Origin: an uncultured Bacillaceae bacterium
GTDB taxonomy: Bacteria > Bacillota > Bacilli > Bacillales > DSM-1321
Length of the DNA stretch: 64,000 nt
Assembly: GCA_963790055.1 (NCBI GenBank)
Contig: CAWBND010000006.1
Location: 1,416 to 65,415, forward strand
Reading direction: 5' to 3'
The first letter of the stretch is position 1. Each line of letters begins with the position of its first letter. Shown here in pieces: positions 2,650 to 51,698 of the stretch. The position numbers and the translations under genes were made by a program. The notes below the pieces were generated by a model that worked only from the letters and a program-made list of their open reading frames with translations, was not told where the DNA came from and searched no databases.

Positions 2650-2752
2650 TCGTTATCATTCAAAGCTATGCTTTGCTGGTCGAAGCACCTTACCGCTTGG
2701 CAGGTTGCTGTGAAGTCTATGAGCCAGTTCTCTCGTTCACTCGTGATAACCT
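2650..2752 (-). promoter_or_regulatory. SAM-I (S-box) riboswitch
   Basis: Minus strand GTTATC-ACGAG...CTGG...AGCAACC...GGTGCT...CCAG...GATAAC gives P1 GTTATC/GATAAC, P3 GCAAC/GGTGC and the CTGG/CCAG pseudoknot. Confidence 0.85.
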
Positions 2753-6519: not shown

Positions 6520-9500
6520 CTATTTTATTAATTGAAAAGGTAAAGCCTGAACATCCTGGCTACTCGAACCGATGTACGCAACAAATGCACCCGGATCACT
6601 TTTATATTGTAAATCTGAATGATGATAGCGCAACTGCTCCTCTGTAATGGCGAAAGAGATTGTTCTTGTTTCTCCAGGGTGCAACATCACCTTTTCGAAG
6701 CCTTTCAATTCTTTCAATGGACGAACGACTTCCCCGACTACATCTTGAATATAGAGTTGAACAATTTCCTCTCCTGATACATCCCCGTCATTTGTTACAT
6801 CAACAGAGATGGTTAAAGGAGTTTCAGCCGTCATTATTCCATAGGATAGCTTTGCATTTTTATATGAAAAAGTTGTGTAGCTTAAGCCAAATCCAAATAG
6901 AAATAAAGGTTCATTTGGAATATCCAAGTACTTAGAAACATACTTCTCCTCTGCATTGAGCGCGTTTTTAGGACGGCCTGTGTGAAAGTGATTGTAGTAA
7001 ACAGGGATCTGACCAACGGAATATGGAAAAGACATACTTAATTTGGCAGATGGATTCTTATCACCGAACAAGAGATCAGCAATCGCTGCTCCACCCTCAA
7101 TTCCTGGAAACCAAGCTTCAAGAATGGCATCTACTTCATCACAGACACCGTGAAGGTCCAGTGGACGTCCATTAAAAAGAACCGCTATCATGGACTTATT
7201 CGCCTTCTTTAATTTTTTAATTAAATCAAGTTGAACCTGTGGCAAGCAGATATCCGCTCTGCTTGCCGCTTCCCCGCTCATCTCGGAGTTTTCCCCGAGT
7301 GCAAGCACAATGACATCGGCTTCTTCAGCTGTCTTCAGGGCTGTATTTTGCTGTTCGATTGTTCCAGCTTCAATTCCGCAACCCTCCGCATAAAGAAGAG
7401 AATGGGCCCCCACTTTTTCTATAAGTCCATCATATAACGGCACAGCCTCTTCTTTTGAACCCAGCCAAGACCAAGGTCCCAAGATATCATGGTTCTTCGC
7501 AAACGGACCAATAACGGCAATCTTCAGGTCCTTTTGAAGCGGGAGGATATGATTTTTATTTTGTAAAAGGACGATCGATTTAGTCGCTATCTCCCGAGAT
7601 ATTTCACGATGATGTTTGCTCATAATGATTTTTTTCTCTAACTCTTCATCTGCACCACGATAAGGATTTTCAAATAAACCCAGTTTGAATTTTAGTCTTA
7701 AAATTCGGAGTACGGCTTCATCGATCAGTGCTTCATCAACCACTCTCATAGATACTAACCAGGCTAGATACTTGACATAAGCTGCGGTCATCATCTCGAT
7801 ATCAACACCGGCTGTAATGGCTTTATAGGCAGCTTCAGCCTCATCAGCTGCTACTCCGTGTGGAATAAGCTCCTTCACAGATCCCCAATCAGAAATCACG
7901 ACTCCGTCAAAACCCCATTCATCCCGAAGTAACCCGCGCAAAAGCTTTCGGTTCCCAGTGACAGGAATACCGTTAACCGTGTTAAACGAAGCCATGACCA
8001 TTTCAGCACCTTCATCAATAGCAGCCTTATATGCAGGTAAGTAATACTCCCGCAGCTGTCGTTCTGACATATCAACTGTATTATAATCACGTCCTCCTTC
8101 AGAAGCTCCATAGGCGGCAAAGTGCTTTACGCAGGCTGCCAACCGGTACAGATCTTTCTCGAGCTCTGGACCTTGGAATCCACGGACAAAAGCTTTCGCA
8201 AATTGGCTATTTAAATAAGGATCCTCTCCAGTTGACTCCATCACCCTTCCCCAACGCGGATCTCGGACTAAATCAACCATCGGTGCGAACGTAACATGGA
8301 TACCGGATACGGATGCTTCCAAGGCAGCAATCTGGGCACTCTTTTCAGCAAGATCCAAATCCCATGAACATCCTATTGCCAAAGGAATAGGAAAAATGGT
8401 CTTAAAACCATGAACAATATCAGCCATAAATAATAATGGAATACCGAGCCGATTGTTCTTAAGATGTGTTTCCTGAATATTTATAATCTCCTTAGCACCT
8501 GAAGCACCAATGACAGAACCGCTGTTTTGAACGATTTTTTCACTAATACCTAATTCAGTCATTGGACCCGTCATGTTACTTTTATCGTTTGAACCTTCAT
8601 AGAAACCGGAAACTAATTGAATTAATTGAGCGATTTTTTCATCCAATGTCATCTGTTTAAGCAAACATTTAAGCTTTTCTTCACTCATTCTCTTTCCAAT
8701 GTACGTTTCAAGAAAGTCAGCCACCTGAGAGTAAGCATATATCTGACTTTCCAATTTTACTAACTTATGCCCCTCCTCTTTGATTCGGATATACGTAACA
8801 GGATGATTTCGCTTCTTCAGTTTATTCACAATCTGCTCTGATTCTTTAATTGGAACACGCGGGTCATTAACTCCATGAATCACCATAAGGGGAGATGTGA
8901 TGTTATCCGCATGATTCAGAGGATCAATTCGTTCAAAAAATTCCCCATCTTTTTCAATCGTTCCATATTCATCCTCTCTAAGCTTCTTCCGCCAAGGACT
9001 TGTTGTTTTTAGGAACGTTCGTAGACTTGATATTCCTACGATATCGACGGCAGCCGCCCACAAATGAGGATAGTGACTAATAGCCAAAAGAACCATAAAT
9101 CCACCATAGCTGCCTCCCATAACCGCTATCTTACTACCATCAACATTCATATCTTCTTTAAGCCATTCCACTAAAGAAATAAGATCTTTCACAGCATCCA
9201 TGCGTTTACGAACATCATCTAAATGGGTATACGTTTTTCCGTAGCCTGTACTGCCGCGAACATTGGGAGTTACCACTGCATAGCCGAGATGTAGAAAATA
9301 TTGCAAAAGAGGGTTGTAAGTAGCACGACTTTGACTTTCCGGTCCACCATGAATATATACGACAACAGGATGTTTCTCAGCCGCAGATGTCGGTTTATAG
9401 TAAAAAGCAGGTATTTGAAGATTGTCAAAAGAACGAAAGAATATTTGTGTAGGCTCCATTAATTTTCCCTCAAGCACGGGGAGGCGAGAAGTATATGTAA

Positions 9501-44799: not shown

Positions 44800-45051
44800 T
44801 CAGTGGAGGCCACTCAACTTTTCATCCACTTGCTGGCAGACCTCGTCAGCTGTTAACCCGTGTGCAGCAATAACCGAACCTTGTGTGGATGCATTTTGGA
44901 TACCTAGTACATCCTTATCCAACCCCGTAATTACACAGCAATCTAGCCCCTGTGCGTCTGACTCTTGTTTCAGTTCTACAATGTCATACCCTTTTGCGCG
45001 CAAAGCGGCCTGTACATTCGTTAATGATTGCTCAACACCAATTCTTGACAT
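44800..45051 (-). CDS. YkuS (UPF0180) family protein
   Basis: [25 protein letters not shown]. Confidence 0.88.
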
Positions 45052-45058
45052 ACTAACA

Positions 45059-45191
45059 CCGTTGCCAAAAACTTATAAAAATCTATAAGCCTTGTTTGCT
45101 TCTTGCTTCTACCTGTCCGATTTTGCCAGAGCTACTTTCGTTTGCTGTGACAGTCCACAAGCGTAAATTCGGATACAACGAATCCTACATA
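45059..45191 (-). ncRNA. TnpB omega/reRNA-like scaffold (IS607 type), copy 1
   Basis: TATGTA-hairpin-GAATTTACGCTTGTGGA...GTAGC...GGACA...GAAGCAAGAA, homologous to 50715-50862. Confidence 0.65.
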
Positions 45192-45231
45192 GTTGAGTTT
45201 TCTTGTAAGATGAAAGTTCTCAACTCTTTAT

Positions 45232-45328
45232 CTGACTTGGTTTTCGTCGATTTTTATTCCTATACACCCTCACGATTCTACTCGATGACTACACCACTTT
45301 CGCAATGTATGGGATTCATAATAGGCAT
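45232..45328 (-). ncRNA. Unidentified conserved structured RNA module, copy 1
   Basis: Helices with compensatory changes relative to 50934-51035. Confidence 0.65.
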
Positions 45329-45520
45329 ACTCATTTTACCAAATTTACAGATAACAAACAAGTGAATTGACTAACGGAGTTCACCTCCTTATAATAGTTT
45401 ATAGATATTTCTTAACTGTTTTTCCCCTCCTCAATGCTAATTTACCCAATTCCACCATTTTCTATTTATGCAAATACTGAAAAAGCCAACTCCCATTATA
45501 AAGAGTTGGCTTACAAATCA

Positions 45521-46459
45521 TTAAAAATATTTCTTTTTCCAGAAAATAAAGGCTACCGTACCTGCTAACCCTAAAGCAATTAGCATCGTAAATATAAATG
45601 CGTATGGGTTATTTGCAAATGGCAAAGCTACATTCATCCCAAAAAAGCTCGCTACCATAGTTGGAAGTGTTAAAATAATGGTTACTGATGTTAAAAATTT
45701 CATAGCATTATTTACATTATTAGAAATAATAGAAGCGAATGCATCCATCATTCCGCTCAAAATAGACGTATACACTTCTGCCATCTCAATCGCCTGTGTA
45801 TTTTCAATAATAACATCTTCCAATAAGTCCTTATCTTCTTCATACATCTTTAAATAATTAAAACGAAGAATTTTATCTAACACTACTTTATTTGATTTTA
45901 AAGAAGTCGTGAAATACACTAAACTTTTTTCCAAAGATAAAAACGTGTACAGCTCTTTATTTTTCATGGACTGATGCAGTTCTCGTTCAGATTCATTTGT
46001 AATTTTATTGATTTGTTTTAAATATCGCAAATAATACATTGAAATCTCAAATAATATTTGCAAAGCAAATCTTGTTTTTTTAAAGGTATAAAATTCTTTG
46101 ATTTTATTATTTTTGAAGCTTGTAAGAATGGGTGTGTCTTTTAATGAAATCGTAAGAAAACAATCTGGAGCATTAATCATTCCAATTGGTATCGTTTCAT
46201 AAATTGGAAAGCCAGCATCATCATGCGCGATATATGGATAATCGACAATAATAAGTAAGTGGCCATCTTCCCGCTCAATCCTTGGGCGTTCTTCATCATC
46301 CAATGGATCTTTCAAAAAATTTACTGGTATATTTAATTTCATGCAGATTTCTGAAATCTCAGATTCTGTTGGTGCTACAATATTAATCCAAGAACCTTTA
46401 ACTATTCCATCAACCTTTTTTAATTCCCGTTCTTCATTTGTTTTATACATTTCAATCAT
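45521..46459 (-). CDS. corA: CorA family Mg2+ transporter
   Basis: FFGMN signature, two C-terminal TMs. Confidence 0.93.
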   Translation of the reverse strand: MIEMYKTNEERELKKVDGIVKGSWINIVAPTESEISEICMKLNIPVNFLKDPLDDEERPRIEREDGHLLIIVDYPYIAHDDAGFPIYETIPIGMINAPDCFLTISLKDTPILTSFKNNKIKEFYTFKKTRFALQILFEISMYYLRYLKQINKITNESERELHQSMKNKELYTFLSLEKSLVYFTTSLKSNKVVLDKILRFNYLKMYEEDKDLLEDVIIENTQAIEMAEVYTSILSGMMDAFASIISNNVNNAMKFLTSVTIILTLPTMVASFFGMNVALPFANNPYAFIFTMLIALGLAGTVAFIFWKKKYF

Positions 46460-46502
46460 GAATTAGCCTCCTCTTCTATAAAGAGAAAGCCTATTTATCC
46501 GT

Positions 46503-46598
46503 TCAAGAAGATGCCCTGTTAAATACACGAAATCTATGTACTCGGATTAGATAAGCTTTCTCGGATCTACTGGGTTCAGGATCATAACTTCCACTCAT
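46503..46598 (-). CDS. Putative corA leader peptide (31 aa, DPEP motif)
   Basis: RBS AAAGGAG, MSGSYDPEPSRSEKAYL...; its coding region can pair with sequence just before the corA RBS. Confidence 0.55.
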   Translation of the reverse strand: MSGSYDPEPSRSEKAYLIRVHRFRVFNRASS

Positions 46599-46797
46599 CT
46601 TATCATCTCCTTTTCATTGACTATTCTTTATCTTAATCCTAATAATTTTAAATCACAACAGCAATTTTAAAAATATACATAAAAAATACAATTCCCTTAC
46701 ATATCATGTTTATACTTTATATCTTGCTGAAAACTTGACTTTTTTCGAAAACTAACATACAAAGGCTCTGTTAGCATGCTAACAGAGCCTTTTATAC

Positions 46798-47238
46798 TTA
46801 ATGCTGGATTTGATTTTGATCATGATCTTCTGAAATAGCGCTTAAAGCAATGCCTGCTTTGGAATCTGTTTCACGTCGAACAGCTAAATCCCCAAGCGAA
46901 ACAATCCCTACAAGTCGATTATTTTCCACTATTGGGATTCTTCGTATTTGTTCACTTGCCATTAACTCTTCAATGTCATCAATTGACATATCTGGCGACC
47001 CCGTCACTAAATGTGTTGATATCACATCCGTAATTTTAGTAGAGTTTGGTCTTTTTTCAGCTACACACCGAATAACAATATCCCGGTCGGTAATAACACC
47101 GATTAGTGATTGATTAGAATCCAATACTGGAATCATCCCCACATCATCTTGCTTCATTTTTAAAGCAGCCTCATAAATATTATCCTGCTCCGTACAGCAA
47201 TCTACATTTTTAGTCATAATGTCTCGAACACTTGTCAT
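46798..47238 (-). CDS. CBS domain protein (YhcV-like)
   Basis: GVITDRDIV, QIRRIPIV, GIVSLGDL. Confidence 0.9.
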   Translation of the reverse strand: MTSVRDIMTKNVDCCTEQDNIYEAALKMKQDDVGMIPVLDSNQSLIGVITDRDIVIRCVAEKRPNSTKITDVISTHLVTGSPDMSIDDIEELMASEQIRRIPIVENNRLVGIVSLGDLAVRRETDSKAGIALSAISEDHDQNQIQH

Positions 47239-47392
47239 AAAAATTCCTCCTCTATTGTTCATCCACGATTATTATGACCACTTGAACTTTTTATATTCTG
47301 TTGCCTGTCTTTACCTTATAAAAAATGTAAGACAGAAGGTACAATCCTTCTGTCTTACTTATAACATTTACATTATTTTAATAAACAAAATT

Positions 47393-49168
47393 TTATGCAA
47401 TATCAGCTGGAAGTAAAATATTAAAAGTTGTCCCTTTATTCACTTCACTTTCAACAACAATACGCCCTTTATGTCCTTCAATAATTTTAAAACTAACCAT
47501 TAATCCTAAACCGTTTCCCGTTTTCTTTGTTGTATAGAAAGGTTCACCTAACTTTTTTAAGCGTTCAGGTGGAATACCGACACCAGTATCTTCGATAGAA
47601 ATTTGTACTTCACCTTCTTTTAATTCGATGCTTACCATGATCTTTCCACCACTTGGCATAGCTTCCATACCATTTTTCACAAAATTCAAGAATACTTGTT
47701 TCAAACGGTTTTCATCACAACGCACAAGAATCGAGTCGTGAGCACTCTCAAAATAAAAAGTGACATTTTTTTTTCGTGCATCAAACTCCATAAGCGATAA
47801 TACATTTCGAATAATCGGAATAATATTTTTCGTTTCTAATTGAACAGACTGTGGCTTGGCTAAAACCAAAAATTCCTCAACAATTTGATTTACCCGATCA
47901 ATTTCATCTAGAATGATTTCAAAAAATTCGATACGATTTGAATCTTTTTCTTCCGAATGTAAAAATTCTGTATATCCCTTCATCGATGTAAGTGGATTAC
48001 GAATCTCATGAGCTACACCTGCTGCTAACTGACCTACAGCGGCTAATTTATCTTGTTGATGCAGCATTTCTTCCGCTTTCTTACGGCTAGTTATATCTGT
48101 TCGAATCGAAATATATTGATAGGGTTTTCCGTTTTTCATAAATGGAACAATCGTTGTCGCTACCCAATACAATTCTCCCAATTTATCGCGATTACAGATT
48201 TCCCCGCTCCACGTTTTACCTTCCTTAATCGTTTTCCAAAGATCACCGAAAAATTCCTTTGAATGATACCCTGAATTAATGATGGAGTGATTTTGTCCAA
48301 GTAATTCCTCTTTGCTATACTTTGAAATCTCAATAAATTTATCATTTGCATAAGTAATAATCCCTCGTGGGTCAGTTATAGCCACAATCGATGACTGATC
48401 TAATGCAAATCGGATATCTCTTACATAATTATCACTGTTAGCTAGTTTTCGGCTAATGATGATACTTGAAATAAGTAAACCGAATACAAGCAAAATAGAA
48501 ACAAAAAACAGCAAATACGCTAGAAAGGACGTATTTTTTACAAGTACATACTGATTACCTACTGCAGAATCAACGGGAAAAGTCCATCGCAATAAATATT
48601 GTCCTTGAATAATCGCCCCTGTCATCATAAAAGTGCTTACAATTTTTAAAAAGTGGGCATTTCCTTTATGGAACCGACTTGGATAAAATAAAATAATAAG
48701 CGTCAAAATAAACATGCAAAGAATCATAACAAAAGACACAAAAATAAGAGATGAATTAACATTCCATTCATCGTGCACAGGATACAAACTAATTATATAG
48801 TTAGCAAACAATGCTATTGTTAGCCAAACACTAGCATACAATATATGAAAGAAATTCAGCACGTTTTTCATTAAATTAAAGAAAGCGATTGCTATACAGG
48901 CTATATCTATCGCCAAAGTCAAAATAATAGTAGAAAAGTCTAGTAAATCAATACGATACCCCACAAATACTACACTATTAATAAAGTTCAAAATCCAAAA
49001 AGCAATTCCTAACACACAACTACTTCCGACAAATAAAAATCGTTTTCGTTGATTGGTCTTTGCCCGCATTCTCATAAACAGATAAATTGCTGCATAAGAA
49101 GCAATGAACGTTACAATAATTGAAATGAATAATACAACTTTATTAGATGAAAACATACTGACTTCCAC
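47393..49168 (-). CDS. Sensor histidine kinase: multi-TM (MHYT-like, degenerate) plus PAS, HisKA and HATPase
   Basis: Several TMs, PAS/PAC, AHEIRNPLT, G boxes. Confidence 0.88.
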   Translation of the reverse strand: MEVSMFSSNKVVLFISIIVTFIASYAAIYLFMRMRAKTNQRKRFLFVGSSCVLGIAFWILNFINSVVFVGYRIDLLDFSTIILTLAIDIACIAIAFFNLMKNVLNFFHILYASVWLTIALFANYIISLYPVHDEWNVNSSLIFVSFVMILCMFILTLIILFYPSRFHKGNAHFLKIVSTFMMTGAIIQGQYLLRWTFPVDSAVGNQYVLVKNTSFLAYLLFFVSILLVFGLLISSIIISRKLANSDNYVRDIRFALDQSSIVAITDPRGIITYANDKFIEISKYSKEELLGQNHSIINSGYHSKEFFGDLWKTIKEGKTWSGEICNRDKLGELYWVATTIVPFMKNGKPYQYISIRTDITSRKKAEEMLHQQDKLAAVGQLAAGVAHEIRNPLTSMKGYTEFLHSEEKDSNRIEFFEIILDEIDRVNQIVEEFLVLAKPQSVQLETKNIIPIIRNVLSLMEFDARKKNVTFYFESAHDSILVRCDENRLKQVFLNFVKNGMEAMPSGGKIMVSIELKEGEVQISIEDTGVGIPPERLKKLGEPFYTTKKTGNGLGLMVSFKIIEGHKGRIVVESEVNKGTTFNILLPADIA

Positions 49169-49408
49169 TTTTTCTAATCACCCCTCTATTTCCCCTTTCT
49201 TTTATTGTACTGAAAAAGACTCAGACATCAAAAACAAATATTACCTATTATGTATATTTCTCTCCACCATCCGCATTCTTTACACTTTTATTTACAAAAT
49301 GATAAGTCTTTCCAAAAAAAGTAAGGATTCAATAGGAATTTCTTTATTTACCAACATCTCTATGTTTATAATAAACAATAAAATACTAAAAAGGGGAGAC
49401 TCAGTTAC

Positions 49409-50317
49409 ATGACAGATATTACCTATCAGGATACGGCGGAAATAATCCAAAAAAAGTCGCAACATAAACGTCTAACATGGCGTCAAATTTTTCAACGAGC
49501 ACTCTTAATCACGGTAGGTGCTGTATTAATGAGTGTCGGTCTAGAAATCTTTTTAGTTCCAAATAATGTAATCGATGGGGGTATTACCGGAATTTCGATT
49601 ATGTTATCTTATCTTACCGGCTGGAAGCTTGGGATTTTCATCTTTGTTTTGAACCTTCCTTTCTTTTTCATCGGCTATAAGCAGATTGGTAAAACCTTCG
49701 CTATTTCCACTCTTTATGGAATCGTCATTCTTTCCATATCTACAACATTACTTCATCCTGTACCTGCTTTTACGCAAGACATTCTACTCGCTTCCCTTTT
49801 TGGCGGAATGGTTCTTGGAATCGGTATTGGGATCGTCATTCGATACGGCGGTTCTTTAGATGGCACAGAGATCCTAGCGATTTTAGCAAGTAAGAAGATG
49901 CCTTTTTCAGTAGGCGAAATCGTGATGTTCTTCAACATCTTTATTTTAGGAAGTGCAGGTTTTGTATTCTCTTGGGATCGCGCGATGTATTCCATTTTAG
50001 CTTATTTTGTAGCTTACAAAACAATGGACGTCGTGATTGCTGGCTTAGATGAATCTAAATTTGTATGGATCATTAGTGATGAATTTCAAGAAATTGGAGA
50101 TGCTATTCTACATAGACTAGGTCGCGGAGTCACCTACCTTTCAGGTGAAGGAGCATATTCTGGAGAAGATAAAAAAGTCATCTTTTGTGTCATCAACCGT
50201 CTAGAAGAAGCGAAATTAAAGGATATTGTCAAAGAATATGATACTTCTGCTTTTCTAGCCGTTGGTGACATCGCAGAAGTACGTGGTGGTCGATTTAAGA
50301 AAAAAGATATTCATTAG
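49409..50317 (+). CDS. YitT family membrane protein
   Basis: DGGITGIS, GGSLDGTE, RGVT, DUF2179-type tail. Confidence 0.9.
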   Translation: MTDITYQDTAEIIQKKSQHKRLTWRQIFQRALLITVGAVLMSVGLEIFLVPNNVIDGGITGISIMLSYLTGWKLGIFIFVLNLPFFFIGYKQIGKTFAISTLYGIVILSISTTLLHPVPAFTQDILLASLFGGMVLGIGIGIVIRYGGSLDGTEILAILASKKMPFSVGEIVMFFNIFILGSAGFVFSWDRAMYSILAYFVAYKTMDVVIAGLDESKFVWIISDEFQEIGDAILHRLGRGVTYLSGEGAYSGEDKKVIFCVINRLEEAKLKDIVKEYDTSAFLAVGDIAEVRGGRFKKKDIH

Positions 50318-50319
50318 AT

Positions 50320-50467
50320 GAAAAGCGGAACCGGCTCGGTCAGCTCGTGAAGAAAATAGGAAAAGACCCGGAAGGCGCTTTTTGCCTTTCGAGGGCTTTT
50401 ATCTTTTTCCGTGCTGAGCTAGCCGGTGGAGCTAGACATGAAGAAAAGCGGAAGACACCCGTTCAGC
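50320..50467 (+). repeat. GAAAAGCGGA...GGAGCTAGAC Bacillaceae palindromic intergenic repeat (one full copy plus a partial tandem copy)
   Basis: Long internal hairpin; related stubs at 38423, 41826 and 59764. Confidence 0.6.
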
Positions 50468-50508
50468 AAAAAAGCACAAGTGCATGGGCACTTGTGCTTT
50501 TTATTAGC

Positions 50509-50706
50509 TCAAGAAGAATGTTTTGGATTATTAATGGCTGGCAGCATTCTTGATCCTGCCTTCATTTCACTGCCGCATAACGGACAAATATGTTCATCGT
50601 TGCTTGTAAAATTATCACGAATCCAACCTTTGCAATCATCGGACATGCATTCCCATACTTTTGTTTCCTCAGGAATGACTTCTTCCATATTATTTCGTCT
50701 ATACAT
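50509..50706 (-). CDS. Cold-inducible YdjO-like zinc-ribbon small protein
   Basis: WECxxxxCxGWIRxNF...CPLCG. Confidence 0.82.
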   Translation of the reverse strand: MYRRNNMEEVIPEETKVWECMSDDCKGWIRDNFTSNDEHICPLCGSEMKAGSRMLPAINNPKHSS

Positions 50707-50714
50707 TCATCTCA

Positions 50715-50862
50715 CTGCTACTAAAAACATAATCAAATGTAATCATCTGACTATGCCAGACGGTTTCCTGCTTCAACGTGTCCCGTCTCGCCAATTGCTC
50801 GCTACTACGGTTGGTATAACACTCCACAGGCGTAAATTCCGATGTAGCCCACCGTACACATA
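50715..50862 (-). ncRNA. TnpB omega/reRNA-like scaffold (IS607 type), copy 2
   Basis: Homologous to 45059-45191 with covarying hairpins. Confidence 0.65.
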
Positions 50863-50933
50863 TACAGATTAGTTAAGTTAATGTGTATATCTTCGTCCGT
50901 TAGTAGACTCTCCTTTCGTTAGATTTTTCAATT

Positions 50934-51035
50934 CCGCTTGATTTTCGCATTTAGGCACAATGTAGGCGACCATCACGGTTCTATCCGATGCAACCGTCAC
51001 TTTCGCAACGTCTTGGCACATTCACAACCTACACC
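50934..51035 (-). ncRNA. Unidentified conserved structured RNA module, copy 2
   Basis: Homologous to 45232-45328. Confidence 0.65.
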
Positions 51036-51698
51036 TCTGAAACGTTTGAATAGACTTAATGCAATTTTTTATCCTTTCACTTTTTACACCAGTGAAAAAG
51101 TAAAGTATAAAAAATCCTTTTCATTTGAGCGAAACGTAATCATTACGAACCGATATAGTGAAAAAAATCTACATCTATTATAACATATCTACATCCAACT
51201 ATTACAGAAATACGTTTGGAGTAATTTTTTAACCTACACCTAAAACAACGAAAGCCCTACCTCTCTTTCATCCATACGGTTCCTAGACCGCGCCTGTAAG
51301 AATCAGGTTAAAAAACAGGAAGCACATGTTTATTAAAACTAATCTTTCCTACTGTAACTCTAAATGAAAATTAAAATTAAAGAAAAGGGTACGAAGAAAT
51401 TTATGAAGATTATTTGTGGAGAAATAAAAATCTTTCTTAGTGCTTATGCATGGATAAGCCGCGCTCTTAATAAAAATGTTACTTTATAAAAAATCACTCT
51501 TCAATGAATCCTTTAAAACCATTCAGATACTATCTTATCATATAATTTACAATATGTAAATATTTTTCAAAACTATACCATCTAGCTCTGCTGATTTTTT
51601 GTTTATTCGTGTAAATTCATAATTTCACATAAATAAACAAAAAATTGAATATATAACATAGGTTTTATAAAAAAATAAAGAGGTGATGGACTCACCTC

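Follow-up and report, generated by a model that had tools for sequence, protein, structure and literature searches.

Two short elements and their shared RNA module

The stretch of DNA analysed here (the window, 64,000 nucleotides (nt) of contig CAWBND010000006.1 in assembly GCA_963790055.1 of an uncultured Bacillaceae bacterium) carries on its minus strand two short mobile elements devoid of open reading frames (ORFs), both of which hold the same RNA module of about 100 nt. Copy 1 is a complete IS607-type mini-element of about 367 bp (45059..45425, with an ambiguous GG at each junction) in front of a ykuS-like gene; copy 2 (50715..51062, left junction at about 51055-51065), in front of a ydjO-like gene, belongs to a second subfamily and is a relic that has lost its left part. 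On the same strand, 70-100 nt 3' of both modules, Rfam recognises RAGATH-18 (RF03064, gathering score 44.9), at 45100..45161 in copy 1 (69.1 bits) and at 50765..50830 in copy 2 (65.8 bits). This motif is the core of the right-end RNA (reRNA) that guides the TnpB nucleases of the IS607 family; TnpB of the RAGATH-18 type uses the transposon-adjacent motif (TAM) 5'-AGGAG and takes its guide from the DNA immediately beyond the right end (PMC11061315). The module itself had been called unrecognised in a first-pass annotation made from the sequence alone, and this is borne out, as no family of Rfam 15 matched it even at E ≤ 10 on a 401-nt slice and it is absent from the literature that we found mentioning RAGATH-18. 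It is a conserved RNA domain that is new with respect to Rfam and the literature searched, within a guide-RNA mini-element that is itself of an already known kind.

The consensus architecture begins with a closing stem, P1, followed by an asymmetric internal loop in which a UUGUGAAU-type 5' side (J1/2) faces UGU on the 3' side (J2/1). The 3-bp stem P2 then opens into two hairpins in a tight three-way junction, P3, in which UGC/GUG closes a GAAA tetraloop, and P4, which has a bulged U and carries the loop GUAGAA; after a short spacer 3' of this core stands P5, a hairpin of 2-3 bp with the loop GAAAACCAA. The core of copy 1 (45259..45325, minus strand), which scores 117.5 bits with R1, the covariance model of the module, is closed by CCUAU (45321-45325) pairing with AUAGG (45259-45263); J1/2 reads UAUGAAU, P2 is CCC/GGG, the P3 hairpin carries its GAAA tetraloop and the bulged P4 hairpin its GUAGAA loop, and the 3-bp P5 is GAC-GAAAACCAA-GUC (45234-45248, minus strand) with a highly conserved loop. 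In copy 2 the core (50961..51033, minus strand, 83.5 bits with R1) pairs UGUAGGU (51027-51033) with GCCUACA (50961-50967) and continues with UGUGAAUGUG as J1/2, CCA/UGG as P2, P3 and P4 next, and UGC-GAAAAUCAA-GCG as P5 (50935..50949, minus strand). Every stem and loop that the first-pass annotation had drawn is present in both copies, on that strand and at these coordinates.

The folding energy of the single sequences is ordinary (z = -1.2 and -0.3 for the two window copies) and the minimum free energy (MFE) fold coincides with the consensus in copy 1 and differs from it in copy 2, so that the support for the fold comes from comparing copies and not from thermodynamics. RNAalifold applied to this genome's four copies (exactly four were found by BLAST and the covariance model) recovers P2-P4. 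Further copies were retrieved with a degenerate pattern built from the conserved loops of the two window copies, with 21 bases fixed, which returned 31 loci from 185,579 species genomes (one per species) and 40 from metagenomes, 37 of the latter true and three chance matches. When 33 distinct copies were aligned with MAFFT alone, pairing was found in 90.8% of cells, compared with 28-45% in controls in which the 3' partner was slid by 1-3 columns, and in an alignment fitted with the covariance model the pairing reaches 92%. Both sides have changed in 14 of the 24 pairs, and none of 500 shuffles reached the observed covariation score. P1 alone occurs as CCUAU/AUAGG, GCUA/UAGU, CCUAC/GUAGG, UGUAGG/CCUACA, CCG/CGG, CCUG/CAGG, CUGGA/UCCAG and AUCAA/UUGAU, and about 25 unpaired bases of the module are conserved; the stem of P5 is weakly supported, with pairing in 75% of cells. 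Since 21 bases were fixed at retrieval, the invariance of the P3 and P4 pairs is partly an ascertainment effect; the covarying pairs fall at positions that the pattern had left free. The minus strand, which is that of the guide RNA, has invariant U.G and G.U pairs, and the structure is therefore specific to this strand and runs in the direction of the reRNA. The module of about 100 nt is a real structured RNA whose fold is backed by covariation, and its description as a strand-specific, covarying feature at the level of RNA has held up.

Two longer-range pairings were considered and rejected. A pairing of the -35 and spacer region with the 5' flank of the reRNA, seen in MFE folds, is strong in the Bacilli subfamily alone, with a mean z of -0.8 over 29 copies and no consistent covariation, and a pairing of GAAAACC in the P5 loop with GGUUUU near the right end suits many copies and fails in five (L013, L020, L025, L038, L017).

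The module is known from both Bacilli and Clostridia, its hosts including Clostridium, Romboutsia, Haloimpatiens, Oceanirhabdus, Sporosarcina, Ectobacillus, Gottfriedia, Bacillus, Melghirimyces and Planococcaceae; six copies are present in Clostridium tepidiprofundi. It was found in none of 66 other genomes of the family and in none of 150 sampled genomes of the phylum; these surveys used strict filters and scored few candidates, so that weak copies could have escaped them. Such a rare, patchy, cross-class distribution is as expected for a mobile element. One of the copies, that of Bacillus cereus AFS039342 (L027), is missing the 5' strand of P1 and the promoter, and the 5' flank of its reRNA is broken by about 130 nt of unrelated sequence with Ns.

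Linkage to the guide RNA in gene-less elements

The module is invariably linked to the reRNA. In all 30 testable genome loci it is followed at 39-99 nt by RAGATH-18 with no intervening ORF, and the same order, again with no ORF in between, is found in 35 of 35 testable true metagenome loci (65/65 overall). Conversely, the RAGATH-18 copies of six genomes (this one and five others) are of two kinds, those that lie behind a tnpB gene of 366-390 codons and have no module, and ORF-less copies, nearly all of which have it. The exceptions are two derivatives that are shorter still or 5'-truncated, a Clostridium punense copy (L064), in which the inner left-end repeat is joined straight to the variable hairpin and the reRNA without a module, and a Sporosarcina copy (L046), of which the P5 motif, the hairpin and the reRNA are left.

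R1 gave no credible match on nine TnpB-linked loci, and the module was not found in a complete tnpA-tnpB element. A role of the module as 5' untranslated region of full-length elements was rejected on these grounds, and the proposal that it had been retained after the ORFs were lost does not fit these elements. Being confined to ORF-less elements, the module is rather the hallmark of a gene-less derivative lineage than a leftover common to the whole family. An origin from tnpB or tnpA coding sequence was likewise rejected, as no protein-level similarity was seen; the interiors of the short elements show no protein-level trace of TnpB or TnpA. A weak likeness over 12 nt exists between the P5 loop motif GAAAACCAAGC and the tnpB codons (GTGAAAACCAAACC) for the conserved VKTKP motif. 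It recurs at the same place in four tnpB genes, two of this genome (L006:1900-1991 and L007:1899-1973) and those of L060 and L062, with E-values of about 0.01-0.02 (R1) and 0.002-0.1 (nhmmer), and is probably due to chance in spite of its recurrence.

The genome under study holds four ORF-less and four TnpB-linked copies, which have the right end and the left-end motif in common. Its four TnpB genes belong to two matching subfamilies, two of them to that of copy 2, and no intact tnpA was seen beside them. The mini-elements are thus gene-less, have ends in common with TnpB-carrying copies, occur in several copies and have empty sites in relatives, as non-autonomous derivatives do. What they have kept is the left end with its candidate promoter, the module, a variable hairpin, the complete guide-RNA scaffold and the right end, and the module occupies the place of tnpA and tnpB. 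Between the left end and the reRNA there is no ORF, and neither window copy has the tnpB that canonically lies upstream of the scaffold, with or without tnpA; both are derivatives of IS607 elements with a RAGATH-18 reRNA and no canonical members of that group. One of the TnpB-carrying elements of this genome (L003) stands before an ssb-like gene, at a site of the same type and without a module; between its left end and tnpB (G000:C1 about 7200-7500) lies a small ORF on the opposite strand (MTISDKNTRTLITLPKELKSKLEKIAKEENRSF...) that resembles ribbon-helix-helix proteins of the CopG/Arc type, an atypical cargo for IS607.

Insertion sites and the candidate promoter

Both window elements are insertions, as can be seen from empty sites in a sister genome (G066). 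Copy 1 is one block absent from G066 and from G065; G066 has GGAGGAGG-TGTTAGT-ATG in its place, in front of a gene whose YkuS-like protein is 100% identical. The junctions of copy 1 are GAGGAGG| on the left and |TGTTAGTATG on the right. The GAGGAGG (45426..45432, minus strand) is, as the empty site of G066 shows, the Shine-Dalgarno (SD) sequence of the ykuS-like gene and also the AGGAG-type TAM at the left flank; the host target comes directly after the right end. The predicted 20-nt guide (45039..45058, minus strand), placed according to the reRNA architecture in PMC11061315, is host DNA and comprises TGTTAGT, the start codon (45049-45051) and the first ykuS-like codons. At copy 2, where G066 has the empty site ...AATCTAAGGAG|TGAGATGA-ATG, the left part of the element and about 57 nt of host DNA, the ydjO-like SD among them, have been lost, and the right junction is in place. 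These comparisons support the initial view that both transposon-derived elements landed between an SD and a start codon and correct the element boundaries that went with it: the AAGGAGG at 45384-45390 (minus strand), which had been taken for the host SD, is an internal SD-like sequence of copy 1.

The same placement recurs elsewhere. All copies have a left flank that ends in a GGAGG-like sequence, and in 27 of 32 cases an intact ORF starts 5-10 nt (mode 7) past the right end, as an AGGAG TAM predicts. The genes downstream of the mini-elements are unrelated to each other. A single mini-element at an orthologous site is found in Bacillus sp. AFS001701 (L025) and Gottfriedia acidiceleris (L029), 460 of 477 nt being identical. 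The carbonic-anhydrase-like gene behind it differs between the two by 11 synonymous and 3 non-synonymous codons over 188 codons and is therefore under purifying selection with the insert present between SD and ATG; a GGGG stretch, which may act as a weak SD, remains 5 nt from its ATG. The question of how a gene copes with 370 bp inserted between its SD and its start codon is made sharper by these insertions.

The left part of the mini-elements contains a candidate promoter. A TATAAT box stands at a fixed 28-29 nt from the core, that is 7 nt before P1, in spite of the variation of P1 itself, and where a copy has an extra 5' hairpin the box shifts along with it. Of 33 copies, 18 have the perfect hexamer and roughly 28 a sequence that is near-consensus when judged by eye; in 13 of the 33 the box is preceded by TG. 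In the complete tnpA-tnpB element of Clostridium grantii the homologous left end is followed by TGTTATAAT, 7 nt and the SD of tnpA, and in the mini-elements the same place holds TATAAT, 7 nt and then P1. Judged by conservation and position, the mini-elements seem to keep the transposon's own promoter, with the module at +1 or +2 of the transcript, and the module probably begins the element's own RNA.

In copy 1 (all features on the minus strand) the candidate is an extended -10 box, TGgTAAAAT (45333..45341), 7 nt 5' of P1 and preceded by a weak -35 hexamer, TTGTTT (45356-45361). Further to the left lie the left-end motif AACAGTTAAG (45411..45420), which TnpB-carrying elements and other mini-elements have in common, and, after the internal AAGGAGG, the inverted-repeat-like CCGTTAG (45371-45377); this two-part left end occurs also in 12 other copies. 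On the 3' side of the module a variable hairpin, GAGUUGAG...CUCAAC (45192..45226), fills the interval to the reRNA and has compensatory variants in other copies (ATACAAG/CTTGTAT, ATATAAGG/CCTTATAT, GAGCGT/ACGCT). It is followed by the 5' flanking motif of the reRNA (45162..45191), a GGAU/AUCC hairpin and then GAAUUUACG, which was described in PMC11061315 and is found in TnpB-linked copies as well, by RAGATH-18, and by the 3' flanking motif with the right end, finishing ...UUUUUGGCAACGG (45059..45099). On the opposite strand of the left part a promoter-like site, TTGACT, 17 nt and TATAAT (45367-45395, plus strand, 11/12 matches), points outward to the 3' end of a corA-like gene; it was seen in copy 1 alone.

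In copy 2 the hexamer at the -10 position is GTTTCA (51038..51043, minus strand), where the orthologous type-B copy L017 has TGTATAAA; from its sequence, the promoter of copy 2 is decayed. The 3' flank and right end (...GUUUUUAGUAGCAG, 50715..50764, minus strand) are followed after 8 nt by the ydjO-like ATG (50704-50706, minus strand). Over 50704-51070 (minus strand) the ydjO-like SD, AAGGAG in G066, is deleted and ...GUAGCAG-UGAGAUGA now precedes the ATG. The BsrC small RNA is matched (87 bits, 51235-51321, plus strand) on the other strand, some 170 nt past copy 2, and elsewhere in the window there is an S-adenosylmethionine riboswitch (2650-2752, minus strand).

Possible roles of the module

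We interpret the module as the structured 5' leader of a stand-alone guide-RNA precursor, made by a gene-less derivative of RAGATH-18-type IS607 elements that resembles a miniature inverted-repeat transposable element, an interpretation to which we give about an even chance. The best-supported form of this reading is that the leader stands in for the translated tnpA-tnpB message and that the guide RNA is delivered to TnpB made elsewhere. From the arrangement of parts we infer the start of transcription, a role of the leader in stability, processing or TnpB loading, and the use of the guide RNA by TnpB in trans, as follows. Transcription would start about 7 nt after the -10 box, with P1 pairing the extreme 5' end of the RNA; the compact three-way junction with its conserved unpaired bases would shield the RNA and might aid maturation or loading; the untranslated guide RNA would be taken up by TnpB supplied in trans; and the resulting ribonucleoprotein would cut the empty site (AGGAG, spacer and start codon) and so maintain or spread the mini-element. 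The alternative that the first-pass annotation had kept in reserve, a TnpB-binding or regulatory RNA, is compatible with these findings.

Several observations weigh against the leader interpretation. Two host genomes have intact modules and no close intact TnpB, and copy 2 retains the fold despite having lost its promoter and left end. The proposed promoter was not called in a simple -35/-10 scan, which misses the site because its -35 is poor. The TnpB-bound reRNA of ISFba1 starts only 37 nt 5' of RAGATH-18 (PMC11061315), and the leader may accordingly be trimmed during maturation. Finally, the roughly 25 conserved unpaired bases exceed what a plain stabilising hairpin would need, which points to a specific partner or a specific chemistry, and specific recognition by the leader, whether for TnpB loading, by a processing enzyme or in self-cleavage, is plausible.

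It is rather unlikely, and still the best placed of the alternatives, that the module is a recognition domain apart from guide-RNA biogenesis, either an aptamer for a ligand or protein through which the downstream RNA or the host gene is controlled, or a stable by-product small RNA acting in trans. Its build is aptamer-like, with the tight three-way junction, the asymmetric internal loop (UUGUGAAU versus UGU) and the conserved loops GAAA, GUAGAA and GAAAACCAA, and the intact fold in genomes without a close TnpB and in the promoter-less, truncated copy 2 would suit a function of this kind. However, the module never stands apart from the reRNA (65/65), no terminator or SD-sequestering platform follows it, its occurrence is that of a rare mobile element (0/66 family and 0/150 phylum genomes), and the genes downstream are unrelated and belong to no single pathway.

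A bolder reading, which we hold to be unlikely, is that the module is a new class of catalytic or specific-recognition RNA, a self-cleaver or an aptamer that recruits TnpB, which matures or loads the stand-alone guide RNA and defines a 'guide-RNA-only' hyperparasitic element. If true, this would be an element that has no protein gene and lives by hijacking the nuclease of other transposons. Bolder even than this would be a role of the folded element in making an SD 370 nt from the start codon usable for ribosomes.

In group I introns the 5' exon ends in U, which forms a U.G pair in P1, and group II introns start with GUGYG. Such features bear on a further alternative, a new ribozyme or bypass device that removes the insert from host mRNA or bridges it for ribosomes or, more narrowly, a self-cleaver that forms the 5' end of the reRNA; the first-pass annotation had favoured a possible IStron-like RNA through which the element might remove or bypass itself in mRNA. 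The elements do split the SD from the start codon, with the ORF start 5-10 nt past the right end in 27 of 32 cases, the ORFs downstream are intact, and the carbonic-anhydrase gene behind the insertion of two species is under selection (11 synonymous, 3 non-synonymous differences); besides, abundant conserved unpaired bases are typical of ribozymes, and proximity to twister and hammerhead ribozymes was the criterion by which RAGATH motifs were defined. Yet no intron or ribozyme model matched: Intron_gpI and related models gave nothing at E ≤ 5 on 7.1 kb or at E ≤ 10 on the 401-nt slice, on which group II, hammerhead, twister, twister-sister, pistol, hatchet, hepatitis delta virus-like and hairpin models likewise gave no match at E ≤ 10. 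In nearly all copies ...GGAGG closes the left flank, so that the exon side would end in G and not in the U of group I introns, and the element does not start with GUGYG. The -10 box inside the element suggests that many transcripts would start internally and have no 5' exon, TnpB-carrying relatives occupy the same kind of SD-ATG site without a module, and in the case of the selected gene the GGGG 5 nt from the ATG could act as a weak SD. The narrower self-cleaver is opposed by the distance of about 70-100 nt between the end of the module and RAGATH-18, which places that end far 5' of the mature reRNA terminus that has been reported. Taken together, we consider a ribozyme or bypass device decidedly unlikely, and the signals expected of IStron-like self-removal were not found. 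IStrons likewise have a left-side structured RNA in a TnpB-family element, co-transcribed with the right-end guide RNA, and their insertions would otherwise be harmful to host genes (Tourasse et al., 2014, PMC4227781; Zedaveinyte et al., 2023, doi 10.1101/2023.11.20.567912). The module differs from them in having no group I core or splice-site features, in occurring only where tnpA and tnpB are absent, whereas the IStron RNA coexists with both genes, and in probably starting the transcript instead of being flanked by exons.

We regard it as highly improbable that the module is a signal in the DNA, for example a binding site for a recombinase, or a remnant that has no function and hitch-hikes with the guide scaffold. 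It does sit in the left half, where IS607 recombinase sites are expected, and AT-rich repeats nearby (TATAAA) resemble protein sites. Against this, compensatory changes have preserved the pairing in 14 of the 24 pairs, the opposite strand would have C.A mismatches in place of the invariant U.G and G.U pairs, and copies from Bacilli and Clostridia still agree in the sequence of the module although their flanks have diverged.

As in the ISFba1-type reRNA (Ren et al., 2024, PMC11061315; RF03064), the window elements carry the full scaffold up to the right end, with host DNA next to it as the guide, and an AGGAG-type TAM at the left flank of copy 1 (the flank is deleted in copy 2). The described reRNA starts 13 nt past the tnpB stop codon with a 37-nt 5' flank, whereas in the window elements, which have no tnpB, a promoter-like box, the module of about 95-110 nt and a hairpin precede the scaffold. 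ORF-less IS200/IS605 elements encoding omega RNAs that are used in trans are an accepted concept, and like these palindrome-associated transposable element (PATE)-like elements (Meers et al., 2023, PMC10055086) the window elements are gene-less, keep the transposon ends and the guide RNA and would rely on the TnpA and TnpB of others. They differ in belonging to the serine-recombinase IS607 superfamily with a RAGATH-18 scaffold and in having an added conserved RNA domain of their own, common to classes of Bacillota, a feature better explained by one successful lineage of mini-elements than by random deletions that occurred repeatedly. The module is the mark of gene-less elements, reduced to promoter, leader and guide RNA, that form a lineage spanning more than one class. 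Such mini-elements account for part of the 36% of RAGATH-18 copies that are not next to TnpB and were left unanalysed in PMC11061315.

If the leader raises the stability, processing or loading of guide RNA in trans, it would account for the ability of guide-only parasites to hold their own against autonomous elements. Cas12 descends from TnpB and its guide RNAs, which are now being turned into compact genome editors, and a leader with such an effect could be borrowed for the expression of reRNA from separate transcripts.

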